A DNA stretch of 64,000 nt from Candidatus Micrarchaeota archaeon (GTDB lineage: Archaea; Micrarchaeota; Micrarchaeia; Burarchaeales; Fermentimicrarchaeaceae), in assembly GCA_026396385.1 (NCBI GenBank), contig JAPLWV010000051.1:26143-90142 (forward strand), given 5' to 3'. Made by a program: the position numbers and the translations under genes. This document shows positions 4,443 to 32,317 of this stretch, in pieces (the first letter of the stretch is position 1; each line of letters begins with the position of its first letter). The notes under the pieces were generated by a model. That model made no database searches. It saw only the letters and a list, made by a program, of their open reading frames with translations, and was not told the DNA's origin.

Positions 4443-5594
4443 TCATTCCTTCTTCGGAAGGACCAATATGCTTAGGAAGAATGCAGAGAAGATTGCCTGC
4501 ACGCCGAGAATTATAAGAGTTGACGAGAAGAGCGCCCTCCGCACTTCAAAAAGCGGTCCGAAGTTGCTGAGCACCCATAAATAGATTATGTCAAAACTTA
4601 GTATTACTCCCAGAACTATCATCATAATTCCCAGGAAAGAAGCTTTCTCCAGAGAGAGGTGCTTGTAGATAAATTCGATTAGCTTATCCTCTTCTTCTAA
4701 GTGGGATACAACAGCGTAGGTTTTTGTGAAGAGCCCCATTATCAGAACCTGAAAGCCGACTATGGCAAGAAGGCTTGCTATAATCATGGGGTGTAAATCA
4801 AGTGTAGTGCCAGCTATGGTCACGGGGCCTGGCACAAGGGCTAAGAGAAGGACTAAAGCGACTATGAACATGAGAGTGCCGGGTATTATGAAAAGGTAAT
4901 CCGGCGAGTACAGGAGCATAAACCTCAGATGCCTCCATCCATCGCTGAAGGAGGAGAGCTTTGACTGGGCTTTTCTTGGGTGGTATGTTATTGGAACCTC
5001 AGCTATTCTCAGCTTCTTCTTCACTGCCTTGACAATCATCTCAGAGGCGAATTCCATTCCCGTTGCATGCAAATCCAGCTTTTCAAAAGCATCCCTTCTT
5101 ATTGCTCGGAAGCCCGTGTGGACATCGCTTATGCTGGCACCAAAGAATGTGTTCAGGATGAAGGAGAGCAATGGATTGCCGATGTACCTGTGAAGCCACG
5201 GCATGGAATTAGGAAGAATTCTGCCCTTCACGCGGGAGCCTAGCACCAAATCCGCCTTGTTCTCGCGAAGGAACTTTATGAATCTAGGTATTTCGTGGAA
5301 ATCATATGTATCATCCGCATCACCCATTAGGATGTATTCTCCTTTCGCTGCCTCAAAGCCAGCCATGTATGCACTACCGTACCCTTCAGTGGGGGATTTA
5401 ACTACCTTCACTCCCATTCTCCTAGCTATTTCCGGCGTTTTATCCGTAGAAGAATCCGCGACAATTATCTCTCCTTTTATGTTTTCCCTTCTGAAAACCT
5501 CCACAATCTTACTTATGCAGTCTGCTATTGTGGTCTCCTCATTCTTGGCCGGCAATATCACGGAGAACTCAATTGTGTTTCCCAATCTTATCAC
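4443..5594 (-). CDS. GT2 glycosyltransferase of Dol-P-sugar synthase type (DPM1/AglJ/AglD-like) with C-terminal transmembrane anchor
   Basis: N-terminal GT-A motifs VILPAKNEETTI, DSSTDKT and DADDTY (DxD), followed by about 4 TM helices. Confidence 0.75.
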   Translation of the reverse strand: MIRLGNTIEFSVILPAKNEETTIADCISKIVEVFRRENIKGEIIVADSSTDKTPEIARRMGVKVVKSPTEGYGSAYMAGFEAAKGEYILMGDADDTYDFHEIPRFIKFLRENKADLVLGSRVKGRILPNSMPWLHRYIGNPLLSFILNTFFGASISDVHTGFRAIRRDAFEKLDLHATGMEFASEMIVKAVKKKLRIAEVPITYHPRKAQSKLSSFSDGWRHLRFMLLYSPDYLFIIPGTLMFIVALVLLLALVPGPVTIAGTTLDLHPMIIASLLAIVGFQVLIMGLFTKTYAVVSHLEEEDKLIEFIYKHLSLEKASFLGIMMIVLGVILSFDIIYLWVLSNFGPLFEVRRALFSSTLIILGVQAIFSAFFLSILVLPKKE

Positions 5595-7875: not shown

Positions 7876-7885
7876 CGTATCTCCC

Positions 7886-10414
7886 TCATGGCGATTTTTT
7901 TATTGATATCTCTTCTATTATGGTTCCAAGCTCCCGCATGTCGCCATTCTTGATGAATTTTTCGGGTATCCAAGGTTCTGATTGTATCAGAAGTTCGGAG
8001 TATGGTCCGGTGGTACATTCCGCTGATATTTGTAGAATATTATCACCATCTGTCAAATTGCTTGAGAGAAGGCACTTGTTGAAGTAAACGGAGATATTCA
8101 TTGGTGCGTTTAGTGGTTTTTTGGAGTTGTCTATTCTAATGCGCAATGTATAGTCTGAATCCGCAGGTGTCGGGAAGGTAATGTGTGCATTCTTCATCGT
8201 CCACCTGAACTCCCTTCCGTCCGATGAAGTCTCGCAACTGAAGAACCCTGTGATGTAGGGGTAGTGGGAGGGACAGAAGTGGATAGTAATCTCGCCCTCC
8301 TGCAGGGCGACATCGGAACTTGTTACTTCGAATAAATCGTAAGATATCTTTCGCTGGGTTATGTTTTGCGGGAACCCGTACTGGGTTCCTTCCCCCATGA
8401 GAGGTACTTCTATTCCTTTACTTTCTTTGTAATTGAGGAACAAGCCAAAGTTTATCAACTTGTCAGCCAGGTTGTCAGAGGGATTTAGAACATATATCTT
8501 ATGGTCCTCGCTCTGCCACTTTTTGAACTGATTCCCGATAGCGGAGTAGTTGTGGTTGTATACAATGAGTGACTTCCTATCGAATATGTAGTTTAGAGGT
8601 GCGGATAATTTCAGGGATTGCCAGTTATACTTGTCAAATACCAATATAGAATTATTTTCCGTGGAGTTTGAGATTCCCTGGATGTAGTTAATCATCCCCT
8701 CATACTCGACATGGTTGAGGAGAGGGTAATTTGGTTGGATAGATAACAGTGTTAGAATCCCTAAGAGGATCCAGAAAATTATTTTTCCAAGAGGTTTCTC
8801 TTTGAAGGAGAGTTTGGATACGGATTCCGCGAGGTATGCAATGCATACCAGAATGAACGGTATTACGACAGGCACGAACCTCCTTATCCACCACGGTTGA
8901 TCGGCATACATTTTGGCGTTTGCTATGAAATAAACCGAATAGATAAGCATAACTCCGAGGAATAAGTACGTTTCGTTGTATGGTTTTTTGTAGAGAAGGA
9001 GGATTGAGCCGCACACGGCCAGTATTATTCCGATGGGGCCTGCTACGTACCAAGAGATTTTAACCATGTTGTACGTATCCACTATCCCTTCCGTGGGTCT
9101 TATGAAGAACGAGTAGAGTATCGCTGTGATGATGAGAAAAGCTACAAGGTACTGTAGGTATGGTAAAAGCTTCCTGAATCCTTTCAATTTTTTTGATATT
9201 TGGCTTCGGAAAAAATCAAACACAAAAAGAATTAAGAAGGTAAGTAGAATGAGAATCGCGAATAGATGAGGTTGTTCGATTAGGGCTGACTCATAGCTGA
9301 AGGTTACCCGGAATATGTCATATGTGTAGGGGGTGGATACCGCCAAAGCAGTGAGGAACGCAGAGATGAACAGAACTGAAAAAGGAATAATGAAGTAGAG
9401 ATATTCCATTTTCAATTTCTCCTTTATCCTGAGATATACGAAGAAGAGGAAAAGCGGAGCGGCGAGCAGAAATGCGTCAATTCTCGTCAAGAAGATTCCA
9501 CCCAAGCACATTGCTGAAATTATTCCGAAGTATTTGTTATGAGTTCTGTTGAATAAGATAAACAGAGCCAACCCACTGAATGTTAGCAGTTGGGTGAAAA
9601 CCTCGGTACTTGGCTCGCGGGCGTACCATATTTCGGCGAAGTTCAGGATTAATAGGAACGTGGAAAGCAGAGCAACTTTATCGTTGAATAACAGTTTTAT
9701 TAAGAAGAAAACGCTCAGCACAGCCAGAATTGCGAAAATGGGTGTTATGTAAAGGCTTGATTCCAGACCGAATAGCGAGTAGAGTATTGCTATCCAAGTG
9801 GGGTACAAGTATAAGAACTGCGGAGTTATCTCCCCCCTGTCTTTATCTGTGATATAGAAGCCCAGGTACTGGAGGCCTTGGTGGTAGGATTTGTTCAGGA
9901 TTTCTACTCTTTTCTCCATTATATAGAAAACATCTCTTGAGGAATCATTCATATCACTCAAAATTGGATCGTTGATAACCACCGAGCCGGTTTTTGCAAT
10001 GTTCGCCCCCGTATTAACATAAACTCCTTGGTCCCGCCCCCCGACTATCCACTCGTACGGCTTGAGGAACAAAGACGACGCAAGAAGAAGGAGGATTATC
10101 AGCAGGATTGAGGTAGAAGTTAAGGCGGGTTTTTGGAATAAATTCGTATCGAACCGACCATACGATTTAATAGCGAGTGGTATGCTCACCAAGAGCAGCA
10201 GCACGGTAAGGTTCGGGATGGAGAAGAAGCCCAGTTCAGCTAGAATCAGCCCCAACCACCCCGAGAGAATTATGTTGCCTAGAAGGATTGAAAGAACTGT
10301 TTCAAGAAATCCGAGCTTTAATTTTTTATTATGGAATGCGCAGTATAGCAAGAAACCTGGAATTAAGAAAATCAATAGTGATACGGGCAGAAGAAAGGCA
10401 GTTGAAACATCCAT
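7886..10414 (-). CDS. large polytopic membrane protein, probable GT-C glycosyltransferase (842 aa)
   Basis: Many TM helices in the first ~560 aa. Acidic first loop GGRDQGVY. About 280 aa of C-terminal soluble region rich in N-x-S/T. Adjacent to other glycosylation genes. Confidence 0.5.
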   Translation of the reverse strand: MDVSTAFLLPVSLLIFLIPGFLLYCAFHNKKLKLGFLETVLSILLGNIILSGWLGLILAELGFFSIPNLTVLLLLVSIPLAIKSYGRFDTNLFQKPALTSTSILLIILLLLASSLFLKPYEWIVGGRDQGVYVNTGANIAKTGSVVINDPILSDMNDSSRDVFYIMEKRVEILNKSYHQGLQYLGFYITDKDRGEITPQFLYLYPTWIAILYSLFGLESSLYITPIFAILAVLSVFFLIKLLFNDKVALLSTFLLILNFAEIWYAREPSTEVFTQLLTFSGLALFILFNRTHNKYFGIISAMCLGGIFLTRIDAFLLAAPLFLFFVYLRIKEKLKMEYLYFIIPFSVLFISAFLTALAVSTPYTYDIFRVTFSYESALIEQPHLFAILILLTFLILFVFDFFRSQISKKLKGFRKLLPYLQYLVAFLIITAILYSFFIRPTEGIVDTYNMVKISWYVAGPIGIILAVCGSILLLYKKPYNETYLFLGVMLIYSVYFIANAKMYADQPWWIRRFVPVVIPFILVCIAYLAESVSKLSFKEKPLGKIIFWILLGILTLLSIQPNYPLLNHVEYEGMINYIQGISNSTENNSILVFDKYNWQSLKLSAPLNYIFDRKSLIVYNHNYSAIGNQFKKWQSEDHKIYVLNPSDNLADKLINFGLFLNYKESKGIEVPLMGEGTQYGFPQNITQRKISYDLFEVTSSDVALQEGEITIHFCPSHYPYITGFFSCETSSDGREFRWTMKNAHITFPTPADSDYTLRIRIDNSKKPLNAPMNISVYFNKCLLSSNLTDGDNILQISAECTTGPYSELLIQSEPWIPEKFIKNGDMRELGTIIEEISIKKSP

Positions 10415-14115: not shown

Positions 14116-15441
14116 TCATGTGGAGTTTATTTCTTTAGCTTTGTTCATAGCGCTTCTTATGCAAGCAGCCATGTTCATGTACTTAAACTCCGCGAATCTG
14201 CCGCAGGATTCGATTCTTCTCTTCTTAAGGAATTTGAACACTTTTGAACTATTCTTATTGTAATCCAAATCGTATATTACGTAAGCGTACTCCGACCTTC
14301 TGACATTCCTGTAGGATATCTTCGAATTCCTTGCGAAACCCAGCCTCTCCAAATCCTTTACGACTTGCTTCAAAATTTTATCATCGCTCTGTTTCAACAA
14401 CGGGTCGTTGGGGAGGCAGGTTATCTCCACCAGTACGGATGACTTGCCTTCTGGAGCGACATACCTGGAGAAATTGAACGGGAAGCTCAACCTGTTGAAG
14501 TCGCCATCTTCCTCAGCAGGTATGTACATCCAAGAGATGTTGTTTATCCTCGGCTCGTCAATCCCAACCATCACCGTGATGAGGGAGTTGTATTTCAGGT
14601 TGTTTTTCGCTTCTTTCACATCCTTCGGCACTCCATCCATGGAATCTATCAAGTCAGGAATGGGCATGCAGGAAACAAGCTTGTCATATTTTCTCTCCTC
14701 CTTTCCATCTGAAACAGTGAATTTACCTCCTTCCCTTGCAACTGACTTCACTTCAAAATTGTATGTAATCTTATCTCTGAGCTTCTCCTCCATCGGCTTA
14801 ACAAGCGCATTTATTCCTCCCTGAATTGGATAGTAGAAAATGAGGTTCTGGTGGTATCCTTCAGTTTTGATTCCAAGAGACGATTTTATTATGTCTTCAG
14901 CAGGCGGCATGGGTATCCCGCTTGCCAGCAACTCCAGAGACAGTTTTCCAGGAGGGTAATTCCAGATTTTTCTGTTGTAGGGGATGAGGTATTTCTCAGT
15001 TATCCCTTTCCCGAATGTATAATACATCCACTCCTGGAAATTTGTTGGTTTCTTCACCTTTCCCTTGCTCACTTCTATGAGGTTTTTAATAAATGATGAA
15101 ATGCATTCGTAATTGTCCTGCTTGGGCAGCTGGTAAAGACCATTCTCAAACGGGTATTTGATGTACCTTCCCTTGAAAAGAATCTTGGAGTTTCTCTTCC
15201 TTTTCACCCAGTTTCCGTGAAGCAATTTTCGGTATAAATTGAAAACATCCTTGTCCTTTGTGAATATCACATGAGAGCCGCCATAGTCAAAGGTGAACCC
15301 TTCCTCGGTCAGGCTTCTGCAGAGTCCTCCGCACTCAGAATTTTTCTCCAATATCTCAAAATCCTTCTTGAGATGGAAACCCAAAGTCAAACCGCTTAAG
15401 CCGCCACCAAGAATGCCGATTTTCATGGAAAAACCTTTCAT
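14116..15441 (-). CDS. glf: FAD-dependent UDP-galactopyranose mutase-like flavoprotein
   Basis: N-terminal Rossmann IGILGGGLSGLT. Glf-like blocks ECGGLCRS...YGGSHVIFTKDKDVFNLY and C-terminal GRFAEFKYMNMA (compare E. coli Glf GRLATYKYYNMD). The true start is possibly MKIGIL at 15426. Confidence 0.55.
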   Translation of the reverse strand: MKGFSMKIGILGGGLSGLTLGFHLKKDFEILEKNSECGGLCRSLTEEGFTFDYGGSHVIFTKDKDVFNLYRKLLHGNWVKRKRNSKILFKGRYIKYPFENGLYQLPKQDNYECISSFIKNLIEVSKGKVKKPTNFQEWMYYTFGKGITEKYLIPYNRKIWNYPPGKLSLELLASGIPMPPAEDIIKSSLGIKTEGYHQNLIFYYPIQGGINALVKPMEEKLRDKITYNFEVKSVAREGGKFTVSDGKEERKYDKLVSCMPIPDLIDSMDGVPKDVKEAKNNLKYNSLITVMVGIDEPRINNISWMYIPAEEDGDFNRLSFPFNFSRYVAPEGKSSVLVEITCLPNDPLLKQSDDKILKQVVKDLERLGFARNSKISYRNVRRSEYAYVIYDLDYNKNSSKVFKFLKKRRIESCGRFAEFKYMNMAACIRSAMNKAKEINST

Positions 15442-17390
15442 TTTACAACCTTATAAATTTTAACCTCTCCAGCATCCTTGACCAGTTCTAGATAGGGTAT
15501 CGTTGAGTTCGTGTACATGAGATTGAAGAAGACCCTGTTCTCTGTCTGCATGGGCATCCTTATGAAGAGATCCGCGAACATGAAGAGATAATCATCATTG
15601 AATTCAACTCCGCCGAGTGCACTCGTGAAGTACAGGTTTTTGTCAGTAAACGCACCAAAATCCTTGTAGTAGACCTTCCTGCCACCCGTATATTCATCCC
15701 AGGCAACATTTTTGATGGGGTCGTAGTATGTTCTAAACCCTGTGCCGAGTTTTGCGGAGTATAGGCCACCTGCTCGTGAAGGTGGAGCCATGCTGAATTC
15801 TATTTTTTCATTCAGGAATTTCTCCGAACTACCTATCCTCGTGAGGTAACCCCTGCTCACCACAACATAACTCACATTATATCTCTCCAGTATATCGTTG
15901 GCTTTATCACCATTATTCGTTCCAAAGAATATCATCTGGTCATCAAATCTGCCTTGGGGCTGGTTGTTTACCACTGTCTTTCTTTCTGCGATTCCATTTA
16001 CCCACTGCGAGTAATCCCACCAGCTCATCACCACAGCATCCTGATTGGAGTTGTTCTTCAGCCACTGCATTGAAGTATACCAGTCGTCCGAAACAGAGTG
16101 GTGCACTATTTGCGGGGGGTAGAAAAGCACTGCGGAGAGTATCATTACTGGTATGAAAACGTCTTTTTTGACTGATGAGCTTGCAATATCAGAAAACCTG
16201 TTTAGCAGGTATGCCGAGAATATTGAGACGAAGATGCCGGCATATTGGAGGAATCTTATTGCAGTGGAAGCCAGCAATGCGAGGAGGGCGAAGGATACAA
16301 GGAAGAGCAGGGTTGCCCTATTGAATTTCTTTAAGGAGGTTAAGAATAGAATCAGCCCGACCAGGAAGGGCAGAAGCTGCAATCCATAATGCTGGGATAT
16401 GTTTGTTAGGGTGGGTGTTTGCAGTTCGGCTACACTTTCGAGGTATATACCTTTCTCCCTCAGACCCATGTAGGCCAGTCCCGCATCCACAATTGAGCTC
16501 TTGGAGAGAATCAGGAAGGGAAGCGAGCATAGCAGCACTATTGCGAGCAATATCACGAACGCGTTTCTGTTATTTTCAAGCCTAAGGGCCACATAGGAGA
16601 AAAGGGCTGAGAACAGCATCATCCCCAGGAAGGGCATTATGCCAAAACCATACCAGAGAGAAGCAATGACGGCAAAAACAATTGACAGGACAAGAAAACC
16701 GATGGTAACATCCTTCTCCAGAAGCTTTAGGTATGGGTTGAAGAGGGAGATGGCTAGCATGAATGCAGAAAGGATGACCACAACCAAGGGAAAGCCTGTC
16801 CAAGTGAGAGCGAACAGTCCAGTGGAAACCCCTGCCAGTGCATAATAGACTAGCTTTTCTTTATTTTCCATGAATCTCTGGTCTGATGGGGGGGATGAGG
16901 AGGAAGCAGTGGGCTTCTTTATAGCTTTTACGAAATAGAAGAATGCCGAGGATACGAAGAGATAATCCAATGGGTCATGGTCGGAGTAGCCGAAGTAGGT
17001 TGTTCCTTTAAAAATTGGGAGAACTGCCAGCAGCATTACTGCCAGCATTGCAGTCCTCTCATCAAACACTTCCCTTGTGAACAGAAAGACGAATATGAGA
17101 GCAAGCGCAGCAGCCAGCAGTGGGTATATCTGCGAGACCAGCATCACATTCAAGCCTGGAAGATGCGCTGGGATGGCAAGCAGGTAATGCAGAAGGGGTG
17201 GGTATAGTATATTCTCACCCATGTTTGACAGCGGGTCGAAAGACGGCCTTGTGCCCTGCTCAAATGTGTATTCCGCTAGCCGGTAGTGGTACCAGGGGTC
17301 GAAGTCTCGCAGGTATGGAACAGTTGTAGTTGTAAGGGCACCTACCACAATAACAAGAAAGATGGCTGCTAGGAGTTCAATTTTCATCAA
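15438..17390 (-). CDS. aglB: AglB/STT3-family oligosaccharyltransferase, short paralogue (650 aa) with WWDYS variant of the WWDYG motif
   Basis: 13 TM N-terminal domain. The EL1 segment is RDFDPWYHYR. C-terminal globular part has VMSWWDYSQW. Confidence 0.7.
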   Translation of the reverse strand: MMKIELLAAIFLVIVVGALTTTTVPYLRDFDPWYHYRLAEYTFEQGTRPSFDPLSNMGENILYPPLLHYLLAIPAHLPGLNVMLVSQIYPLLAAALALIFVFLFTREVFDERTAMLAVMLLAVLPIFKGTTYFGYSDHDPLDYLFVSSAFFYFVKAIKKPTASSSSPPSDQRFMENKEKLVYYALAGVSTGLFALTWTGFPLVVVILSAFMLAISLFNPYLKLLEKDVTIGFLVLSIVFAVIASLWYGFGIMPFLGMMLFSALFSYVALRLENNRNAFVILLAIVLLCSLPFLILSKSSIVDAGLAYMGLREKGIYLESVAELQTPTLTNISQHYGLQLLPFLVGLILFLTSLKKFNRATLLFLVSFALLALLASTAIRFLQYAGIFVSIFSAYLLNRFSDIASSSVKKDVFIPVMILSAVLFYPPQIVHHSVSDDWYTSMQWLKNNSNQDAVVMSWWDYSQWVNGIAERKTVVNNQPQGRFDDQMIFFGTNNGDKANDILERYNVSYVVVSRGYLTRIGSSEKFLNEKIEFSMAPPSRAGGLYSAKLGTGFRTYYDPIKNVAWDEYTGGRKVYYKDFGAFTDKNLYFTSALGGVEFNDDYLFMFADLFIRMPMQTENRVFFNLMYTNSTIPYLELVKDAGEVKIYKVVK

Positions 17391-17404: not shown

Positions 17405-18448
17405 CTATTTCATGCTGAACCTGAGGATTCCTGCTATGCCCGACATGCCCGTCAGTTGCTTTCCAGCTTCACTTTCCGAGCTGAAGATGAATATCTCTGC
17501 TTTCATCTTCTCAGAATCTTCCAGCAGCTTCTCAACCTCCCTCTCCTTCCTCAGGAGCTCGTCAACCACCAGAAGCTTCGCAAGGGCTCTGCATTCAACT
17601 GCATTTCTGACTTCCCCAACTCCATAAACCGCAAGCCCGCTCTCCTTTGATAGCTCTCTGAGGAAACTCTCCAGAACAGAGAATTCCTCCTCCATTTTTT
17701 GCTCCTTGACAATTTTTGAGAGCGCACCCTTCTTAAGCAACTCGTATACTCCGCTCTCCTCGGCTGTGCTGCTGGACTCGAAATGAAGCTTCTTCAGAAG
17801 CTCCTCATCCCTCTCAGCTATGAACTTCTTGAGATTGTCCTTTGCAAAACCCGGTCCAGCAACAACAATTTTACTAACCTTCATGCTAGTGAGGTGTTTA
17901 GCTATATCGCCGAAGAACTGCTTCCCCTTCTCCTCGAATTTCTCATCGCCTTTTGATGCATGACTGCTGAGCTGGGGGCCGAACTCGACCCCATACTCCC
18001 TGACAAGCGCAAAGAGGGCTTTCCCTTCGTCTAAAACAAGAATCCCAAGCTGGGGTTTCTTTGAGCTGTTCTTAGCCTTCTCAATTCTCTGCAGCTGGTA
18101 GCTCTTCCACTCCTTCCTTATCTCAACCGGTCTTTGAAGCTCAACCTCTATGGTGTGGTGCTTTCCAATCTGTATGTAATCCTCAGGCTCCCCCCCAGTT
18201 ATTTTTCCAGTAACCCTCAGAGCATTGGAGAACTTGCTGAATTCTACCTTCTCTGCCTCCAACTGTATCCTTACCTTCTTCCTCTCACCTTCCTCGCCTT
18301 CCTCCTCGGATACCTTGAAAACCCGTGTGGAAGAGGATGAAACAACATCTCCGGGCTCCAGCACCCTCTCCAAATGCCATAGGTCCTCCAGAACCTCCGG
18401 TACGAGTTTCATCCTTCCTTCCTTTCTGTCGAAGCTCAGAACTTTCAT
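17405..18448 (-). CDS. pelA: Pelota (archaeal Dom34 homologue), no-go / non-stop ribosome rescue factor
   Basis: N-terminal MK..VPEVLEDLWHLERVLEPGD block characteristic of Pelota. Three-domain length (347 aa) with an eRF1-like central and C-terminal region. Confidence 0.8.
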   Translation of the reverse strand: MKVLSFDRKEGRMKLVPEVLEDLWHLERVLEPGDVVSSSSTRVFKVSEEEGEEGERKKVRIQLEAEKVEFSKFSNALRVTGKITGGEPEDYIQIGKHHTIEVELQRPVEIRKEWKSYQLQRIEKAKNSSKKPQLGILVLDEGKALFALVREYGVEFGPQLSSHASKGDEKFEEKGKQFFGDIAKHLTSMKVSKIVVAGPGFAKDNLKKFIAERDEELLKKLHFESSSTAEESGVYELLKKGALSKIVKEQKMEEEFSVLESFLRELSKESGLAVYGVGEVRNAVECRALAKLLVVDELLRKEREVEKLLEDSEKMKAEIFIFSSESEAGKQLTGMSGIAGILRFSMK

Positions 18449-18534
18449 GAGAGAATTAGGGTAGATGATTATTAAATTTAGTACATGCTTAGCTGATAAT
18501 CCTGAGCTGATTGTTTTTCAACTCCGTGTATAAA

Positions 18535-18789
18535 TTATTGGTAAACCTTCTTTCTGTGCCCCAGGTCAATCACATACAGCTTCTTTCCTGCATCATCCAA
18601 ATCTATGAAAACCCGGTAGTCGCCAACCCTCAGCTTCCATATCTTTACAGAAACTAGCCTGTCGAGGAAGAGGTGAGGCGAATCCCTTATCTCCTCAACT
18701 TTCTTTATAATTCTTGAAACTGCAACCTTGTCAAGGGAGGAGAGGGATTTCTCTGCCCTCTTTGTCCAGACAACCTCGTAGGGCATCAC
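18535..18789 (-). CDS. type II toxin, RelE/ParE family
   Basis: 84-aa basic protein ending KLRVGDYRVFIDLDDAGKKLYVIDLGHRKKVYQ (RelE fold signature). Overlaps the upstream antitoxin ORF by 4 bp (ATGA). Confidence 0.75.
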   Translation of the reverse strand: MMPYEVVWTKRAEKSLSSLDKVAVSRIIKKVEEIRDSPHLFLDRLVSVKIWKLRVGDYRVFIDLDDAGKKLYVIDLGHRKKVYQ

Positions 18790-19028
18790 TCAACACCCAG
18801 TTTCCTCAGCAACTCCTTTGTGGAGAGCACCCTGCCCTCTCTAATGTCTTTCCTGCCCTCCTCTATTCCTTTTACTGCCTCCTCGCTCAGCTGCTCCTTC
18901 TCAGCCATTTCGAACACCTTCATAAGCTTGTTCAGTATCTCATCATATGTTTCGCGCGTGTACTCCTTGAGGGAGAGAAGCTTCTCCCGCGTTTCCTTCT
19001 GAATCTGGATTGTCGTAAGCTCAGCCAT
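18786..19028 (-). CDS. antitoxin of RelE/ParE pair
   Basis: 80-aa acidic helical protein immediately upstream of, and translationally coupled to, the RelE-like toxin. Confidence 0.6.
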   Translation of the reverse strand: MAELTTIQIQKETREKLLSLKEYTRETYDEILNKLMKVFEMAEKEQLSEEAVKGIEEGRKDIREGRVLSTKELLRKLGVE

Positions 19029-19182
19029 AAAACCACCAGCAGTTATATACTACCATATAAGTTATTATACCGCAGCTATATAAACCTTCCTCCTGCTACC
19101 GAGCTATAAAATTCGGCATGCAAACGTTTTTATACTATAAGTATCATGAATACCGTTATAAAAAGCATAAAAAGGTGAACGT
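19029..19182. promoter_or_regulatory. divergent promoter region of the two toxin-antitoxin operons
   Basis: 154-bp AT-rich spacer. TATA-like tttatatag (minus-strand sense, about 19075-19084) and cgtttttatac (about 19124-19134) sit about 45-55 bp from the respective start codons. GGTGA Shine-Dalgarno 5 nt before ATG 19183. Confidence 0.4.
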
Positions 19183-19443
19183 ATGAATGTGAATGTGCAG
19201 TTCAAAGGGCTTATGGAGGAGATTCTGGAGGAAGCAGAGCGGAGAGGGATAGCAAAGACAAAAACAGAGGCTCTGAGGCTTGGAGTGCTGGAATTGAACA
19301 ACAGATACCACCTACTGGAGCACAGAGCAGAGGAGATTGAAGACCTGCAGGATACAAAAGAGCTCGAAGAGATGAGAAGTGCTGTCAAAAAAGGAAAAGC
19401 AAAGCTTATCAGCGAAAAAAAGATGCTGGCAATGCTGAAGTGA
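19183..19443 (+). CDS. antitoxin of second RelE/ParE pair
   Basis: 86-aa charged helical protein. Stop lies 4 nt before the toxin start. Confidence 0.6.
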   Translation: MNVNVQFKGLMEEILEEAERRGIAKTKTEALRLGVLELNNRYHLLEHRAEEIEDLQDTKELEEMRSAVKKGKAKLISEKKMLAMLK

Positions 19444-19447
19444 TCCG

Positions 19448-19699
19448 ATGCCCTATGAGCTTTTTTTCGATGCAGACTTCAGCAAAGATGTTGACAGACT
19501 GGACAAGAGCGTAAGAGAGCAGCTCAGAAAAATAATACTTAAAATAAAGCAAAACCTCTATGTTGGCAAAAGGCTTAAGGGCTACTCCAACTTCTTCAGG
19601 GTGAGATTTGGAATTTTTAGAATTATCTATTTTGTCGAAGGCGATAAAATTTACTTCAAAAGAGTTAGAAAAAGAGATGAGGTTTACAGGAATGTGTGA
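19448..19699 (+). CDS. type II toxin, RelE/ParE family (paralogue of 18535-18789)
   Basis: 83 aa. Starts MPYE like the other toxin, with a shared ...FRVRFGIFRIIYFVEGDKIYFKRVRKRDEVY C-terminal pattern. Confidence 0.7.
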   Translation: MPYELFFDADFSKDVDRLDKSVREQLRKIILKIKQNLYVGKRLKGYSNFFRVRFGIFRIIYFVEGDKIYFKRVRKRDEVYRNV

Positions 19700-19790
19700 G
19701 AGGGGAAAGCAGGCTTGATATATCCCACGAAACCGTAAAAATTGGTAAAAGTAAAGGGTAACGTATAAAATTTAGTAGTCAAAATTCTAG

Positions 19791-21563
19791 TTGGTTCATA
19801 TGGGGGTTAGAATTGCAATAGTGGACAGGGATAAGTGCACAAAGAAGAAGTGCGGCTACCTGTGCCAGAAAGCATGCCCAGGGGTAAGGATGGGCGACGA
19901 AACGGTTACGGTAGACGCTGAAGGATTTCCGGTAATTTCTGAAACACTATGCTCCGGCTGCGGCATATGCGTGAGGAAATGCCCCGTGAATGCCATAAAG
20001 ATAATAAACCTGCCCCACGAGGCGGGAAAACTCATCTTCCAGTATGGGGTGAATGCCTTCAGGCTTTACAACCTTCCCCTGCCCAAAAAGGGCGCTACAG
20101 TCGGTCTGATTGGGGCAAACGGGATAGGGAAGAGCACTGCGCTTGAGATATTGAGCGGAAGGCTGAAGCCCAACCTAGGCAACTACGGAAAGAAGGCAGA
20201 GTGGGATGAGATAATTGAAAAGTTCAAGGGCCAGGAGCTGCAGAACTACTTCGAGTCGCTTAAGAAAAAGGGTGTGAGGATAAGCTACAAGCCCCAGATG
20301 ATAGACAGACTTCCAGAAGTATTCAAGGAAACTGTTCGCAAGTTCATAAAGAGGAATGACAAACGGGGAAAATTCGAGGAAGCAATTGACGCATTTGAGC
20401 TTAGGGAGTGCCTTGACAGGAAGATTGAGAATCTTAGCGGGGGGGAGCTGCAGAGAATGGCCATATGCGCGGCCTATCTCAAAGATGCGGATGTGTATTA
20501 CATTGATGAGCCCAGTAGCTATCTTGATATAAAACAGAGGCTGAAGGTTTCAAGCAATCTGAGGGAGCTTGCGAAGGAAAAGGCAGTTATAGTTGTCGAG
20601 CATGACCTTGCAGTTCTGGATTATATGAGCGATTACATACACGTATTCTATGGAACCAGCGGAGCATACGGAGTTGTCTCCAAGCCCAAAGGGGTTAGGA
20701 ATGGGATAAATGAGTACCTTGCAGGCTATCTGAAGGAGGAGAATGTCAGATTCAGGAGTACTGAGATAAAATTCACTGCGGGCAGCATTGAGCAGAAGGG
20801 CGGTGAGTTACTTTTCCCGTATGACGAGATGAGCAAACGGTATTCTGGCTTCTCGCTGAAATGTACTTCTGGAGAAGTGAAGAAGGATGAAGTGATAGGC
20901 GTGATAGGCCCGAATGCAATTGGCAAGTCGACTTTTGTGAAACTGCTTGCAGGAGTGGAGAAGCCCGACAAAGGAGAGGTTGAGCAGAAGTTAAGAATTG
21001 CGTACAAGCCGCAGTATATAAAATCGGATTTCAAAGGGACTGTTGATGAGATGATAGCTGCCACAGACAACCTGAACAGGGATGTTTTTGAGAGGGAGGT
21101 CAAAGAGAAGCTCAGCATATCTGAGTTGATGGAGAAGAAGGTGAGGAACCTCAGCGGAGGGGAATTGCAGAGGGTTGCAATTTCATTGTGCATATGCCAG
21201 GAGGCTGACCTCTACCTGCTTGACGAACCATCCGCATTCCTGGATGTGGAGCAGAGGCTTATTTTTGCGGATGTACTTGGCAGGGTGATGGAGGGAAGCG
21301 GGAAGAGCGCATTTGTCGTTGACCATGATATAGTACTTATTGATTCAATTTCTGACAGGCTGATTGTCTTCCGGGGAAGGAGCGGGGTGGAGGGATTTGC
21401 GAATGCACCAGAGGGTAAGAGGGAGGGCATGAACAGGTTCCTGAAGGATGTTGATGTGACTCTGAGAAGGGATAAGGACTCCCTGAGACCGAGGGTGAAT
21501 AAGCCTGGTTCTGTGCTGGACAGGGAGCAGAAGCAGGCTGGTGAGTATTACTACCACAAGTAA
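19791..21563 (+). CDS. abcE1: ABCE1 (RNase L inhibitor / Rli1 homologue), ribosome recycling ATPase
   Basis: N-terminal twin 4Fe-4S Cys clusters (CGYLCQKACPG; CSGCGICVRKCP). Two NBDs with Walker A GANGIGKST / GPNAIGKST and signature LSGGELQR twice. The probable true start is the second ATG at 19800 (MGVRIAIVD). Confidence 0.9.
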   Translation: MVHMGVRIAIVDRDKCTKKKCGYLCQKACPGVRMGDETVTVDAEGFPVISETLCSGCGICVRKCPVNAIKIINLPHEAGKLIFQYGVNAFRLYNLPLPKKGATVGLIGANGIGKSTALEILSGRLKPNLGNYGKKAEWDEIIEKFKGQELQNYFESLKKKGVRISYKPQMIDRLPEVFKETVRKFIKRNDKRGKFEEAIDAFELRECLDRKIENLSGGELQRMAICAAYLKDADVYYIDEPSSYLDIKQRLKVSSNLRELAKEKAVIVVEHDLAVLDYMSDYIHVFYGTSGAYGVVSKPKGVRNGINEYLAGYLKEENVRFRSTEIKFTAGSIEQKGGELLFPYDEMSKRYSGFSLKCTSGEVKKDEVIGVIGPNAIGKSTFVKLLAGVEKPDKGEVEQKLRIAYKPQYIKSDFKGTVDEMIAATDNLNRDVFEREVKEKLSISELMEKKVRNLSGGELQRVAISLCICQEADLYLLDEPSAFLDVEQRLIFADVLGRVMEGSGKSAFVVDHDIVLIDSISDRLIVFRGRSGVEGFANAPEGKREGMNRFLKDVDVTLRRDKDSLRPRVNKPGSVLDREQKQAGEYYYHK

Positions 21564-22211: not shown

Positions 22212-25200
22212 TTAGTATATTTTTATGGTTTTGGAGTTTACTGCTTCGCTGTTGCCTACGTTGTCGGTGCTATTGTATGTTATATAGCTCGTCCCTTTGG
22301 TTGAAACATAGATTTTGATGAGTCCTTTGTATGAGTCGTTTATTTCGGTTGCTGATAACGCCCTGTTGAATATCTTCACTTCGTCTATTGTGCCGTTAAA
22401 CCAACCACTATTCCCCCTTGCACAACCGATATATGGGGTATAGATAAGACTTGCGACACCTCCGAGGGCTAATGAATTTGAAGTTACATAAGCCCCGTTT
22501 TCCCATAAGGAGAAGTTATTGCCATCCCTCACCCCGCATACATGAAGCCATACATTATTTGTGACTGAATTACCACGCAAATCAATCGCATAACCATACA
22601 TATCCCTTACATGAAACCTAGTCACATAATTCCCGCTAGTATTCATTAATTGTATCGAATAGGATTCCCCGATTGATGTCGAATTTGTTTTGGCGAATAT
22701 TACAAAGGTCGTACTACTGTCTTGCGGAAGATTGGTTGGATATACCCAAGCACAAATGCTAAAGTTACCAGAACCGAAATTAAAGAGAGAGGAATTCGTG
22801 ATATTCACAAGGTCATTCTTCCCGTCAAAACTCAACGCAGGTCCGTATTTGCCTCCTGTCCAGGTTGCACCACTGATGGTTCCGGTATTCCCATTCCCGC
22901 TTGAGTCGTTTGCTGTGGTTCCTGTCCCTTCGTTGAGATTCCAGTAAGCCCGTAGATTGGATATGTCAGCAATCTGCTGAGATGTTAGGGCGGTGCCGTA
23001 TATCTTCACATCGTCTATCGTGCCGTAGATCACACTCCCTCCTTGCTGTCTTCCTATGTAGAATTTGGCAATGCTTGGCCGGATTGCTGAAATTGCCTGC
23101 GGGCTACCGCTCTGAACACCATCAATATAGATTATCGCATGCGTCCCATTCCATACTGCAGCAATGTGGTGCCAGTTGGTGTCTATTGTTGCTGTGGAAG
23201 TGGCTGATATTGTTGCGCTATCATCGGATTTTCTCAGTGTGAATGATATGGTGTTACCAGTGTTTTGGTTGATTGCATAACTGCGTTGTCCAGCAGCGGC
23301 ATTCCATCTGCTGAGTATTGTCCTTGCACTTGTCAAACTTGTGTTTGATGTCTTGAACCAGAGAGAGATGGTCATAGCTGTGAAATCCCTTAAAATAGTT
23401 GAATTGCCACAATAGACATTGTTAGTGGATAAACCATTAAAGCGCAATGCATTTCCGTATTTGCCTCCTGTCCAGGTTGCACCACTGATGGTTCCGGTAT
23501 TCCCATTCCCGCTTGAGTCGTTTGCTGTGGTTCCTGTCCCTTCGTTGAGATTCCAATAACCAAGTAACGAATAGTTGTACATATTAGCAATTTCGGTTGC
23601 TGATAACGCCCTGTTGAATATCTTCACATCATCTATCGTGCCATTGAACAAAGTGCCGCTTGCTGTGTTTCTACCTATATAAGTAGTAGTTATCGACGAT
23701 TGCAGATTGCTGAATGCTACTATATTATTTGTTTGGAGGATGCCATTAAGATATGTGTATATGTGCGTTCCATTCCAAACCCCAACGATATGATACCAAC
23801 TATTTGTTGCAGTTATGGCAGAATCTATACAGGAAGTAGCCCATACTGCATCGCTTATATTTCTTGTCATAAAGCAGAATTTGTTTGCTGTGTCCTGAAC
23901 TATCTGATATGAACGTTGTCCAGCAACAGAATTAGCTCGTGCAACTATCGCCTTTGCTGAAGCATAATTCAATTGTGCAGGATTTATCCATACACTAATC
24001 GTCATAGCAGTAAAATTCCGCAAAATAGTTGCATTCCCAACATTCACGTAACTACTTCCATTAAAACTCAATGCATTTCCAATCCTCCCTGATGTCCAAC
24101 TTGCGCCTATGATGGTTCCGGTATTTCCATTCCCGCTTGAGTCGTTTGCTGTGGTTCCTGTCCCTTCGTTGAGATTCCACAGGCCTACTAGACCGCTTTC
24201 TGTGGAAATTGTTGGCGTGCATAAGTTGCTTGTATCTATGCAATAGTGGGTTATTGCACAGCCGCTTGTTGCATCTGTGCAGAGTAAGGTCACGTTGACA
24301 TAGGAAGAGTTAGTCCATGTGTTTTCTGTGTAATTTGAGCCGTCGCTCTCTACTAAGGATGCAGAAGTTGAAGGTGGTGTTTTATCAAAAATTACTGAAC
24401 TCGAGTCAGTTGTGCTGGTCACCCGTACTCCGGAGATATATGAATGACTTATGAAATCAATTGTGAAATTCACTGTCCCTTCGCTATCACCGGGAGCCAT
24501 TGTATAAGTTGCCGTATAAGAATTCCCTCCAGTGCTGGATACCGAAGCTGTATGACCTGCGATTTTAACAACAGGGTTATTGGACAATGCTTTGTCTGCG
24601 GTAGATGAAAGATTTATGCTGTTACCTACTTTCGCCTTGCTTGAGTCAGAGTTGTTTGATTTTATTTTGACAGAGGTTAGCACAGGTGGAACCACGTCAT
24701 CTCCGAAAAAATGAACTCTCATGCTTAGGCCTTTGGCACTGTTTACAAAAACTGAAACCTGTGTATTATTCCCCCAGTTGTCAATTGAGCTCGGAGTTGT
24801 CGTATCGTTGAAATATTGTTTTGCGGCATTACTCGAGTAAGCAGCATCTGTAACATCCAATACGTATTCAGGCACAATTCCCTTTTGTACGCAAGCGTTT
24901 ATTGTATTGTTTGTCCTGCTGCATGGAACATGCCCGTATATGTACCAGTTGTCTATATGCCATATGACAGTTCCCTCACCTGGGATATACGCATCAAATC
25001 CAACTTTTTCTCTATTCTCTACTATATAATACTCTTTATCAACATTCAGAATTGAATTGTTGATGATAAACGCTTGGCTTTTATTCTCAAGATTTTTCAC
25101 GTAATATGAGATGGGGTTACCGGTCAGCTGGGTTGCCTTTAACCATCCCAGGTCTATCTTGCACCAGGCGCTCATATGAGTTGGAACAGTGCCGTCATAG

Positions 25201-26240
25201 CTTGGACCTCCCCATGAACCACCATCCATAAGGTCCCAAGTATCGACTACCCAATCTCCAGAATATGTATTATACAAATCAGGCAGACCTAAATCATGCC
25301 CAAACTCATGCGCAAAAACTCCGGTTTTACCGTACTCGGGGTCCATTGTGTATAGGTATACTCTTTTGCCGTCAACCAGCTGACCTCCGGGAATAACCCA
25401 GCTGTGGGACCATATGCTTGTATCTGGGGGGTAGCCTTCCTCCTGCCCATGACCGCTATGGATTATTATGACGTGATCCGCATAGCCATCACTATCCGTA
25501 TCATAATCTGCAAAATTAACATTTGGATTTGCCAGCAGGATCGCCTCTCTTGTAAGCTCATAAATATAGACTGGCCAATTCGGCCCCGGTTGACCAGTAT
25601 CTATATATCCATACCCATCAGTTGCGTAGTACTCCACTGGGTGACTGCTTGTATACCAGCCAAGCACAGTGCCTGTCAGGTTTAGCTTGCCATAGGATAC
25701 TTCATTGTAATAACTCGTTAGGCTAAGTGGGTTGGATGCATTGAACAGCAAATTCTGAAAATACGCTGTATCATGGGACGGATCATGAGCCTGGTTAGTA
25801 AACTGTATGAGGATAACTACCACTTTATGGGTGCCTGTTGGCGGAGGAGCATATTGAGGCTGATCTTCCATAGACGCCCTTCTAGTTGTTGGAACAGGAA
25901 TGTCACTTTCTATTGAAAGTTTGGAAGAGTCAATGGCTTTGAAAATGCTTTTATGTATACCTATTGATTGAGGTGACACATGACCGACTCTCAAATCAAC
26001 GGACTGGTTCAAGAGTTCATTTTGTGTGACGTATGTCCACCATTCACCAGTTTTTTGGATAGCATAGCCAGTTTCAGTTTCATACCAGTATCCATTCTCA
26101 TCGCCTCTTAGATAGCCCTTGAATGTTGTATTGTCTGGTTGTTGGAATTCATGTAGGATGGGTCTGGCTGGTACTGCGTAGCAGATACCTGATAACAAAA
26201 ATATTGAAATGAGTATAGTCAGCTCAGTTAGTTTTCTCAT
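22212..26240 (-). CDS. secreted M6-family (immune inhibitor A-like) zinc metalloprotease with three C-terminal LamG / concanavalin-A-like lectin repeats
   Basis: Signal peptide MRKLTELTILISIFLLSGICYA. Zinc site VFAHEFGHDLGLPDLY (HExxHxxGxxD of M6/InhA). Three repeats, each about 205 aa, beginning WNLNEGTGTTANDSSGNGNTGTI.GA.WT and ending GTIDDVKI(F/Y). Start taken at the second ATG (26240). Confidence 0.75.
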   Translation of the reverse strand: MRKLTELTILISIFLLSGICYAVPARPILHEFQQPDNTTFKGYLRGDENGYWYETETGYAIQKTGEWWTYVTQNELLNQSVDLRVGHVSPQSIGIHKSIFKAIDSSKLSIESDIPVPTTRRASMEDQPQYAPPPTGTHKVVVILIQFTNQAHDPSHDTAYFQNLLFNASNPLSLTSYYNEVSYGKLNLTGTVLGWYTSSHPVEYYATDGYGYIDTGQPGPNWPVYIYELTREAILLANPNVNFADYDTDSDGYADHVIIIHSGHGQEEGYPPDTSIWSHSWVIPGGQLVDGKRVYLYTMDPEYGKTGVFAHEFGHDLGLPDLYNTYSGDWVVDTWDLMDGGSWGGPSYDGTVPTHMSAWCKIDLGWLKATQLTGNPISYYVKNLENKSQAFIINNSILNVDKEYYIVENREKVGFDAYIPGEGTVIWHIDNWYIYGHVPCSRTNNTINACVQKGIVPEYVLDVTDAAYSSNAAKQYFNDTTTPSSIDNWGNNTQVSVFVNSAKGLSMRVHFFGDDVVPPVLTSVKIKSNNSDSSKAKVGNSINLSSTADKALSNNPVVKIAGHTASVSSTGGNSYTATYTMAPGDSEGTVNFTIDFISHSYISGVRVTSTTDSSSVIFDKTPPSTSASLVESDGSNYTENTWTNSSYVNVTLLCTDATSGCAITHYCIDTSNLCTPTISTESGLVGLWNLNEGTGTTANDSSGNGNTGTIIGASWTSGRIGNALSFNGSSYVNVGNATILRNFTAMTISVWINPAQLNYASAKAIVARANSVAGQRSYQIVQDTANKFCFMTRNISDAVWATSCIDSAITATNSWYHIVGVWNGTHIYTYLNGILQTNNIVAFSNLQSSITTTYIGRNTASGTLFNGTIDDVKIFNRALSATEIANMYNYSLLGYWNLNEGTGTTANDSSGNGNTGTISGATWTGGKYGNALRFNGLSTNNVYCGNSTILRDFTAMTISLWFKTSNTSLTSARTILSRWNAAAGQRSYAINQNTGNTISFTLRKSDDSATISATSTATIDTNWHHIAAVWNGTHAIIYIDGVQSGSPQAISAIRPSIAKFYIGRQQGGSVIYGTIDDVKIYGTALTSQQIADISNLRAYWNLNEGTGTTANDSSGNGNTGTISGATWTGGKYGPALSFDGKNDLVNITNSSLFNFGSGNFSICAWVYPTNLPQDSSTTFVIFAKTNSTSIGESYSIQLMNTSGNYVTRFHVRDMYGYAIDLRGNSVTNNVWLHVCGVRDGNNFSLWENGAYVTSNSLALGGVASLIYTPYIGCARGNSGWFNGTIDEVKIFNRALSATEINDSYKGLIKIYVSTKGTSYITYNSTDNVGNSEAVNSKTIKIY
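22843..22943. repeat. about 101-bp coding-sequence repeat, copy 3 (LamG repeat head)
   Basis: Identical to 23454-23554 over about 101 nt (ccgtatttgcctcctgtccaggttgcaccactgatggttccggtattcccattcccgcttgagtcgtttgctgtggttcctgtcccttcgttgagattcca). Confidence 0.8.
23454..23554. repeat. about 101-bp coding-sequence repeat, copy 2
   Basis: See copy 3; offset 611 bp. Confidence 0.8.
24111..24179. repeat. about 69-bp coding-sequence repeat, copy 1 (1 mismatch)
   Basis: gatggttccggtatttccattcccgcttgagtcgtttgctgtggttcctgtcccttcgttgagattcca; offset 625 bp from copy 2. Confidence 0.75.
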
Positions 26241-26667
26241 ATTGATACACCATCCTTTCTCCTTTACTAATCGAGACATTTGCTTGAATTATATCACCGA
26301 CGGCAATTCCAGATAGATTTACATCTGTATTACTTGGACCCAGTGGCGGCATATCTACGGTAGTAGCTGATGTTCCCCATTGAAATACGAAATTGTTGAT
26401 ATCGCTTTTTTCCAATTTTATCGTGCCATCGCGTTTATCTGAATCATAAGAGATAAGGTCCAGAATCTCAAGCCTTGCGCTTTGCGTTTGAACATTCAAA
26501 ACTCTCGCCCTAATAACTGCCGAATCAGTAAGTGGTTTTGGAGGTATGACTTCTGTTGAATCGTTAGATCCCGTAGTACTATTTGGGTTAATTGTATTTG
26601 GCGAAAGTGACTCTTTAGTAATACAGCCTGAAAAAAATAGGATTGCACAGACTAGTGAAACCAGCAA
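26224..26667 (-). CDS. hypothetical lipobox/secreted protein
   Basis: N-terminal MLVSLVCAILFFSGC hydrophobic segment ending in a lipobox-like SGC. Ser/Thr/Asn-rich linker. Confidence 0.5.
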   Translation of the reverse strand: MLVSLVCAILFFSGCITKESLSPNTINPNSTTGSNDSTEVIPPKPLTDSAVIRARVLNVQTQSARLEILDLISYDSDKRDGTIKLEKSDINNFVFQWGTSATTVDMPPLGPSNTDVNLSGIAVGDIIQANVSISKGERMVYQYEKTN

Positions 26668-31027: not shown

Positions 31028-32317
31028 ATGGGCATTCTGATCAAGAATGTCAGCATACTGACACAAAACAGCAGGAGGGAAATCCTCAGGGACGTTGATA
31101 TACTTACAGAGGGTAATAGAATAGAAAAAATAGGCAAAAATGTAAGGGAGAGGGCAGAATTCAAGATAGACGGAAGGGGGAAACTTGCCGTTCCTGGTTT
31201 GGTAAACACCCACAGCCATGTAGCAATGACACTCTTCAGGGGATATGCTGATGACATGAGATTCTGGGAGGCATGGCCGGAGAGGATATGGCCGAAAGAG
31301 AAGAAGTTGAAAGCAGAGCATGTATACTGGGGCGCTATGCTCGGATGCATGGAGATGATCAGGAGCGGCACAACATGCTTTATGGATAACTATTTTTTCA
31401 TGGAGGAGGTTGCAAAGGCAGTAAAGGAGATAGGAATTCGAGCTAATCTTGCCTATGGCATGATAGATTTGGATGACGCAGGAAAAAGAAAAAAGGAGTT
31501 GGAGATTGGAGAGGGGTTTGTCAAAGACTTCAATGGCAAAGCAGATGGCAGGATAACGTGTTCATTCAGTCCCCACGCCCCCTACACCTGCTCCAGGGAA
31601 CTGCTGCTCAAGTCAAAGGAGCTTGCAGAGAAACATGATGTCTTGCTGCAGATTCATGTTTCAGAGACAAGGAAGGAGGTTTTCGATTCACTTAAAAAGT
31701 TTGGCAAGAGGCCTGTTGAATACCTGGATTCAATCGGATTTCTCGGCAGGAGGGTTATGGCTGCTCACTGCGTATGGATTACAAAAAGGGAAGTGAGGAT
31801 GCTGGGGGAGAAAGGAACTAGAGTATCGTATAACCCAGTGAGCAACATGATGCTCGCTTCCGGTGGAGTGGCACCAATACCGCAGATGCTTGAGAGCAAG
31901 ATCTGTATAACATTTGGGACTGATGGAGCAGTGTCTAATAACTCCCTGAATATGCTTGAAACGATGAAAGTGGGGGCATTGCTCCAGAAAGCGCATCATT
32001 GGGATGCAAGGGTGCTTAATGCACAGCAGGCAGTGGACTTTGCAACCTGCAATGGAGCTGCAGCACTTTGCATGAACAGCGGCAGCATAGTGGAGGGGAA
32101 GCTCTCGGATATGTCCCTCATGGAACTTAAATCCCCGAACCTGCTCCCGGAAAACAACCTTGTCTCAAATCTGGTTTACTCTTCTAACCCATCAAACATA
32201 TCTGACATGATAATAGATGGAAAGCTTGTTATGGAAAACAGAAAGATTCTGACAATTGATGAAGAGAAAGTTTTTGAAAATGTGGAGAAAGTTGCTGAGA
32301 AACTTACGCGCGATTAG
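31028..32317 (+). CDS. amidohydrolase, MTA/SAH / 5-deoxyadenosine deaminase-like (MtaD/DadD family)
   Basis: Metal-binding VNTHSHVAMTLFRG (HxH). Overall length 429 aa and the C-terminal GTDG...D pattern of the TIM-barrel amidohydrolases. Confidence 0.7.
   Translation: MGILIKNVSILTQNSRREILRDVDILTEGNRIEKIGKNVRERAEFKIDGRGKLAVPGLVNTHSHVAMTLFRGYADDMRFWEAWPERIWPKEKKLKAEHVYWGAMLGCMEMIRSGTTCFMDNYFFMEEVAKAVKEIGIRANLAYGMIDLDDAGKRKKELEIGEGFVKDFNGKADGRITCSFSPHAPYTCSRELLLKSKELAEKHDVLLQIHVSETRKEVFDSLKKFGKRPVEYLDSIGFLGRRVMAAHCVWITKREVRMLGEKGTRVSYNPVSNMMLASGGVAPIPQMLESKICITFGTDGAVSNNSLNMLETMKVGALLQKAHHWDARVLNAQQAVDFATCNGAAALCMNSGSIVEGKLSDMSLMELKSPNLLPENNLVSNLVYSSNPSNISDMIIDGKLVMENRKILTIDEEKVFENVEKVAEKLTRD

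Follow-up and report, generated by a model that had tools for sequence, protein, structure and literature searches.

Two RelBE-type toxin-antitoxin cassettes at a variable site between the divergent ribosome rescue genes pelota and ABCE1 of a Micrarchaeota archaeon

Pelota and ABCE1 (Dom34 and Rli1) act together on stalled ribosomes in rescue and recycling, and in an archaeal host, without transfer-messenger RNA (tmRNA), rescue would fall to this pair. Cleavage by RelE leaves ribosomes on truncated mRNAs, and these are split by archaeal Pelota together with ABCE1. The closest described relatives of the toxins considered here belong to the archaeal RelBE systems of P. horikoshii (aRelBE; PDB 1WMI) and M. 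jannaschii (RelBE3; 3BPQ) and to E. coli RelBE (4V7J/4V7K). Here we analyze a stretch of 64,000 nt (the window; coordinates count from its position 1) from a Micrarchaeota (DPANN) archaeon in which two RelE-like toxin-antitoxin (TA) gene pairs, TA1 and TA2, lie between pelota and ABCE1. An earlier annotation of this DNA (here, the sequence-only reading) had proposed a functionally coupled poison-and-rescue module or, as a fallback, an addiction element inserted between co-regulated rescue genes. If true, a dedicated toxin-rescue circuit would be the first genomic link of archaeal mRNA interferases to the Pelota/ABCE1 pathway.

The gene order is pelota(-), toxin 1(-), antitoxin 1(-), a 154-bp gap, antitoxin 2(+), toxin 2(+), and ABCE1(+) (Table 1). 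The six gene identities, coordinates, and strands of the sequence-only reading, its mirror order, and its 154-bp divergent gap between antitoxin start codons were all confirmed, with every open reading frame (ORF) present and the profiles in agreement. Pelota and ABCE1 are both clear orthologs by equivalog profiles, scoring 299.7 bits against TIGR00111 (curated cutoff, 177.65) and 858.5 bits against NF009945 (curated cutoff, 469), respectively. We interpret the locus as two separately acquired RelBE-type TA cassettes in a variable insertion site between pelota and ABCE1, with no selected functional linkage to the rescue genes, a reading to which we assign a probability of about 0.8.

The comparison was based on 17 distinct pelota-ABCE1 loci, the window included, collected from genome contigs, metagenome contigs, and exact-protein look-ups of toxin and pelota homologs; a metagenome scan with a pelota alignment was swamped by unspecific patterns and contributed five loci only, and the upstream sequence of L029 and L030 was too short to judge adjacency. 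Pelota and ABCE1 were divergent neighbors in all 17 Micrarchaeota loci, at pelota identities to the window of 46 to 97%. The gap between them measured 57 to 59 bp in six loci (L002, L003, L023, L028, L043, and L044) and 118 to 135 bp in two others (L005 and L007), in all cases without TA genes, while the remaining nine carried cargo. The sequence-only reading had presumed that the two genes are not usually neighbors in archaea, which is wrong for Micrarchaeota, and the synteny check proposed with it, i.e., whether relatives show the adjacency without the TA pairs, is answered by the eight loci with an empty gap: the pelota-ABCE1 adjacency is independent of the TA genes. The window's ABCE1 protein is 96 to 98% identical to that of a Lac Pavin sediment metagenome-assembled genome (MAG; L001/L025) and 86% identical to that of the complete genome of Ca. 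Fermentimicrarchaeum limneticum Sv326 (L004), the orthologs in L001 to L004, L023, and L028 being 85 to 96% identical. Among the sampled loci of Halobacteriales, a Thermoplasmatales MAG, and an Aenigmatarchaeota MAG, pelota was not found within the available flanks of ABCE1. No earlier description of the pelota-ABCE1 neighborhood, or of a TA link to it, was found in the literature searched. The pelota of one compact locus, L003 (6900 to 7942), aligns in three frameshifted pieces, reflecting a sequencing or assembly error or a disrupted gene.

Compact loci run from the pelota start through ~21 nt, GATATTAAAAT, and ~26 nt to the ABCE1 start. They have a single A/T-rich TATA-like element roughly 26 to 31 nt from each start codon, a position that fits a shared bidirectional archaeal core promoter, and the compact gap is probably just that. 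The ancestral state would thus have been a compact divergent pair with one TATA-like element serving both genes, the short gap having since become a recurrent site of insertion and replacement for accessory genes.

The nature of the cargo differs widely between the nine expanded loci. The window carries TA1 and TA2, and its close relative L036 (pelota ~95% identical) TA2 only. In L025, the nearest relative (97%), the gap holds instead a gene for a 238-aa class I methyltransferase. That of L004 (77%) contains a TnpB/IS605 element and a TA pair of a DUF2683 gene and a RelE/YafQ-like gene, the pair being unrelated to the window's cassettes. An AAA_14/DUF4143 ATPase gene is found in L045/46 (76%), with small ORFs, and in L047/48 (71%), in the opposite orientation. 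Two ~330-aa genes without assigned family occupy the gap of L006 (49%), a 124-aa ORF that of L032 (52%, over the first 61 aa of pelota only), and three genes including a P-type ATPase that of L049 (51%). TA genes are thus present in the gap of three of the 17 loci (window, L036, and L004) and absent from the other 14, including the nearest relative. A rough neighbor-joining tree of pelota intersperses cargo-bearing with compact loci, pointing to at least three independent gains, plus later replacements. The L025 methyltransferase has a 68%-identical paralog in the window (58912 to 59568, within 58867 to 59571) and a 65%-identical one in L028.

The break points are sharp. Against L025, with which the window shares 94 to 96% DNA identity, the match stops at 18476, 28 bp past the pelota start, and resumes at 19782, 9 bp before the annotated ABCE1 start. 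In L036 (~95% identical), a 26-bp filler (CGAAGCAGCTTGGGGCTTCTTTAGGC; L036 431 to 456) with a GAAGC/GCTTC hairpin takes the place of the segment from 18525 to 19111 (TA1 and its putative promoter), and the adjoining spacer is kept with or without TA1. The filler could be an excision scar or the original preinsertion sequence. Since L036 carries TA2 without TA1, the two are separate indels, of which TA2 came first. No integrase, tRNA, att-type site, or known RNA gene was seen at the insertion site. The Lac Pavin assembly breaks inside ABCE1 at about residue 49 to 50 (L025 end, 3394; L001 start), beside the variable gap, and strain heterogeneity at the gap may have fragmented it.

Duplicated TATA-like elements are found on either side of the cargo. 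A 14-nt direct repeat in the window pairs TATTAAATTTAGTA (18470 to 18483), on the pelota side, with TATAAAATTTAGTA (19764 to 19777), on the ABCE1 side. L036, L004, and L045/46 all have the pelota-side TATA-like element, equally far from pelota; the element on the ABCE1 side is the same in L036 and L045/46, and those of L004 and L047/48 have diverged further. The methyltransferase gene of L025 is flanked by two copies of the promoter core, which form a 31-nt direct repeat (2385 to 2415 and 3206 to 3236). Expanded loci of the close clade hence have a TATA-like copy on both sides of the cargo, from which it would follow that both rescue genes keep their own core promoter, at the usual distance, whatever is inserted between them. 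TA2 entered first and TA1 later, as two unrelated, self-contained type II cassettes with their own putative promoters.

Table 1. Coordinates of features of the pelota-ABCE1 region in the window and in related loci
Locus	Feature	Coordinates	Strand	Description
Window	pelota (aPelota/Dom34 homolog)	17405-18448	-	347 aa; TIGR00111; eRF1_1/2/3 domains
Window	Pelota-proximal core-promoter copy (putative)	18449-18483		TATA-like TATTAAATTTAGTA at 18470-18483
Window	Spacer common to window and strain L036	18484-18524		Aligned to L036 385-430
Window	TA1 cassette as indel unit	18525-19111	-	~587 bp: own promoter (putative), antitoxin 1, toxin 1
Window	Toxin 1, RelE-like	18535-18786	-	83 aa from ATG 18786; start in ORF list, GTG 18789 (84 aa)
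Window	Antitoxin 1, DUF7557 family	18786-19028	-	80 aa; PF24434, 9.8e-9
Window	Divergent region	19029-19182		154 bp between antitoxin start codons
Window	Antitoxin 2	19183-19443	+	86 aa; without curated family
Window	Toxin 2, RelE-like	19448-19699	+	83 aa; PF05016, 4.7e-7
Window	ABCE1-proximal core-promoter copy (putative)	19764-19799		TATAAAATTTAGTA at 19764-19777
Window	ABCE1/RLI	19791-21563	+	NF009945; Fer4_RLI and two ABC_tran domains
Window	Equivalent of the compact gap	18449-19799		
L002	Compact gap	7942-8001		
L028	Compact gap	6943-7001		
L043	Compact gap	3803-3862		
L044	Compact gap	4941-5001		
L004	Hairpin-bearing repeat copies	5920-5952, 7194-7238, 7871-7923		

Close homologs of both cassettes occur in unrelated contexts. 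That of TA1 in Sv326 (Sv326_0621) is 92% identical, versus 77% for pelota, and lies at 0.56 Mb, ~600 kb from the pelota-ABCE1 pair at 1.16 Mb. Other TA1 copies adjoin ArgRS or acetyltransferase genes, and TA2 homologs 78 to 86% identical sit between an 832-aa gene and a 567-aa gene. Overall, the cassette homologs are 78 to 94% identical and keep their gene pairing. The fallback of the sequence-only reading, an addiction element inserted between co-regulated rescue genes, thus gains support from the synteny, the stepwise gain, and the homologs elsewhere. The cassettes would act as selfish addiction or mobile units, their closeness to the rescue genes being a consequence of the hotspot.

Other cargo appears mobile as well. 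Inverted repeats of 45 nt that carry hairpin-type palindromes bracket the TA pair of L004, and the repeat occurs a third time beyond TnpB, suggesting carriage by an IS605-type element; a second TnpB copy, 70% identical, lies 7 kb downstream (14576 to 15715). The AAA_14/DUF4143 ATPase gene (L045, 3066 to 4358, minus strand; L047, 3638 to 4909, plus strand) behaves like a mobile gene, since it occupies the gap of two lineages in opposite orientations and another place in a third (L044, 8359 to 9642), where it is located between AglB and an amine oxidase gene. In L045, nucleotidyltransferase (MNT-like) and HEPN genes (8201 to 10182) follow AglB and precede the amine oxidase gene, making the AglB-amine oxidase site a second variable spot in the conserved neighborhood (ABCE1, pelota, AglB, and amine oxidase). 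An antitoxin 2-toxin 2 homolog (49% and 43% identity) is present in the distant Micrarchaeota genome L005 (14755 to 15262, minus strand), 5 kb downstream of ABCE1, the L005 gap itself being empty.

In the alternative of a selected poison-and-rescue module, stress would, for instance, derepress the TA promoters and transcription would run on into pelota and ABCE1, so that rescue capacity would rise at the very time that RelE is stalling ribosomes. Besides the established fate of RelE-truncated complexes, several observations are in its favor. Each toxin gene is directly upstream of, and co-directional with, a rescue gene (spacers of 86 nt for toxin 1-pelota and 100 nt for toxin 2-ABCE1); neither spacer has an oligo-T run (four or more T), so that co-transcription is possible; and the cassettes bring no obvious terminator, their conservation stopping at or just short of the toxin stop codon. 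The window, moreover, has no other recognizable TA genes, and the TA-type HEPN/nucleotidyltransferase genes of L045 lie away from the gap. In addition, RelE-type cassettes account for at least three independent entries into the gap (TA1, TA2, and the L004 pair), and a hidden Markov model (HMM) scan of ~220 kb of Micrarchaeota DNA not fetched by a toxin query, a sample without a genome-wide background rate, placed three of four RelE-like genes in the gap, the fourth being that of L005. Such clustering is also expected from functional affinity, and together with the missing T-runs it weighs against simple insertion into a hotspot. It is nonetheless a weak argument, because a hotspot concentrates all mobile cargo, TA genes included, and because the HMM was seeded from these same families; likewise, T-runs are rare after other window genes too, so their lack is weak evidence. 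We rejected orientation as evidence for coupling, as a gene inserted between divergent neighbors will always point toward one of them.

Against such a module stand the distribution of the TA genes, the unrelated contexts of close homologs of both cassettes, and the retention of a TATA-like element by both rescue genes. Pelota, TA genes, and ABCE1 do not co-occur as a conserved set: the proposal of a functionally coupled module fails the synteny test, with TA genes in only three of 17 loci, a methyltransferase gene in their place in the nearest relative, and cassette homologs elsewhere. A selected module is on balance unlikely. Quite unlikely, too, is that the Micrarchaeota bidirectional promoter preferentially captures RelE cassettes, such that antitoxin loss would derepress the TA promoters and, the cassettes having no terminators and being directed into the rescue genes, co-induce pelota and ABCE1, an exapted feed-forward circuit that would couple mRNA interferase activation to rescue capacity in an organism without tmRNA. 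It is possible that transcription incidentally runs on from the cassettes into pelota and ABCE1.

Whether the toxins would bear on ribosome rescue at all depends on their being of the RelE type. Both matched PF05016 above its cutoff of 23 (toxin 1, 37.2 bits, 4.7e-9; toxin 2, 30.7 bits, 4.7e-7); this Pfam model, named ParE_toxin, represents the RelE/ParE superfamily as a whole, so the match also suits ParE-type gyrase poisons, or proteins that are otherwise not mRNA interferases, which would leave no link to ribosome rescue. The best sequence and fold matches, in contrast, are all bona fide RelE. Among PDB sequences, toxin 1 was closest to T. thermophilus RelE (2KHE, 1.4e-7), followed by E. 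coli and P. horikoshii RelE, and toxin 2 to M. jannaschii RelE3 (3BPQ, 5.6e-7) and ribosome-bound E. coli RelE (4V7K, 4.6e-4); neither matched any ParE structure in this search. An AlphaFold2 model of toxin 1 (54 sequences; predicted local distance difference test [pLDDT], 92.5) had only RelE structures as its top Foldseek matches, with template modeling (TM) scores of 0.74 to 0.91 (2KHE at 0.91, 9G12, 3G5O, 1WMI, 4FXE, and 3BPQ), ParE structures appearing as weaker matches from rank 14 onwards. The RelE fold, in which N-terminal helices pack on an antiparallel sheet, is thus evidenced by the model for toxin 1 and by the sequence matches to 3BPQ and 4V7K for toxin 2. In the alignment, E. coli RelE residues R56, R61, R81, and Y87 are conserved in both toxins, the K54 position is occupied by K (toxin 1) or R (toxin 2), and the K52 equivalent falls in a gap. 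The toxin of the L004 gap lacks this active site, with V at R61 and H at R81. Homologs of the window's toxins are annotated RelE/StbE in the source records; an exact-sequence look-up of toxin 1 returned no match. An identity as gyrase poisons or other noninterferases is very unlikely, and both toxins are predicted, by homology, to cleave mRNA as ribosome-dependent endonucleases that their antitoxins keep inactive.

The profile search suggested with the sequence-only reading therefore bore it out as regards the small toxin ORFs, which are of the RelE superfamily by profile, have the catalytic residues, and, for toxin 1, the fold. Its description of the two as paralogous does not stand in the sense of recent paralogs: the toxins share only 23% identity (E about 0.05) and have unrelated antitoxins, which makes them distant superfamily members rather than products of a recent duplication.

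For the antitoxins the outcome of the same search was mixed. Antitoxin 1 belongs to DUF7557, with additional weak VAPB_antitox and RelB/ParD matches, and its pairing with the toxin recurs in L038, L039, and L042. Antitoxin 2 had sub-threshold VapB/RelB-like profile matches only, and a single-sequence model was all-helical at low confidence (pLDDT, 73); it is named an antitoxin because it is always the upstream partner of the toxin 2 family (L033 to L037 and L005). A PDB sequence search with the antitoxins gave nothing meaningful, with no detectable similarity to solved RelB proteins. The layout of both pairs is that of type II TA systems, in which a small antitoxin gene lies directly upstream of the toxin gene, is translationally coupled to it (1-nt overlap of the toxin 1 ATG with the antitoxin 1 stop in TA1; 4 nt apart in TA2), and is kept with it as a unit, the antitoxin-then-toxin order recurring in other contexts (L033 to L042 and L005).

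Conservation across contexts delimits each unit. That of TA1 begins about 62 to 85 nt before the antitoxin ATG and ends with the stop codon of the toxin (L038, L039, and L042); that of TA2 starts about 65 to 80 nt upstream of the ATG, the DNA matches ending at or just short of the toxin 2 stop. Accordingly, a cassette consists of a putative promoter and two genes, without a terminator of its own. The conserved upstream stretches contain a TATA-like box, repeated motifs, and, in most copies, a GGTG Shine-Dalgarno-like sequence. Within the 154-bp region, the TA1 side has conserved TTTATATA, repeated GTATA(A)TAAC motifs, and a GGTGG Shine-Dalgarno-like sequence, and the TA2 side conserved GCATGCAAAC-TTTTTATACTATAAGTAT and GGTGA; the region may thus comprise each cassette's own promoter and likely operators. 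These features bear on whether the cassettes are decaying, nonfunctional insertion remnants, as the lack of a recognizable DNA-binding family in antitoxin 2 might suggest. All four ORFs are, however, intact and full length compared with their homologs, the catalytic residues are retained, copies from different contexts have conserved motifs in their promoter regions, and the homologs preserve the pairing at 78 to 94% identity, which makes decay most improbable.

As to the exact gene boundaries, toxin 1 probably starts at its ATG rather than at the GTG, giving 83 aa as in its homologs, and the true start of ABCE1 is probably the conserved ATG at 19800, not the TTG at 19791. No further recognizable TA genes were found among the window's other small ORFs. 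A candidate third RelE-like gene at 31280 to 31510 (tblastn E, 0.008) was rejected, as it falls inside a 429-aa ORF. Rfam and tRNA scans of the window detected no RNA genes. Downstream of ABCE1, a 1,355-aa ORF (22212 to 26279, minus strand) encodes a protein with a hydrophobic segment at its N terminus and a ~20-residue motif, NLNEGTGTTANDSSGNGNTGTI, that is repeated three times internally within longer similar stretches; this is probably a secreted or surface protein.

Overall, the cassettes are ordinary RelBE-type members, of a known kind, in a strain-variable site that interrupts the putative shared promoter, and in this respect the finding is routine. The conserved divergent pelota-ABCE1 pair, with its apparently shared core promoter, provides genomic-context support for the co-regulation of two biochemical partners. 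Moreover, the streamlined genomes of these DPANN archaea appear to tolerate gene insertion, time and again, in a tiny promoter region, which illustrates in a compact natural case how reduced genomes may gain accessory genes while essential neighbors are not silenced.

Compared with the described systems, the cassettes resemble archaeal RelBE (1WMI and 3BPQ) in their small antitoxin-then-toxin operons of overlapping or 4-nt-spaced genes and in their ~83-aa RelE-fold toxins, with equivalents of R61, R81, and Y87 and TM scores of 0.74 to 0.80 for the toxin 1 model. They differ in their antitoxins, which are of DUF7557 (TA1) or of no family (TA2), and in that activity is here predicted from sequence. 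With E. coli RelBE they share superfamily, fold, and key active-site positions, although the toxins are only about 22 to 31% identical to it and the K52 equivalent is missing from the alignment. The site itself is similar to integration hotspots and variable islets in its conserved flanks, strain-specific cargo, clean break points, mobile cargo (TnpB, TA, and AAA_14/DUF4143), and multiple gains. Unlike these, it would be a bidirectional core promoter shared by two essential genes for translation, in a DPANN genome of ~1.2 Mb; in the close clade, TATA-like copies flank the cargo on both sides, and no integrase, tRNA, or att-type site was seen. Finally, the flanking genes are orthologs of the Dom34-Rli1 factors that act together on stalled ribosomes, with the difference that in Micrarchaeota the two are also physically paired, as divergent neighbors.

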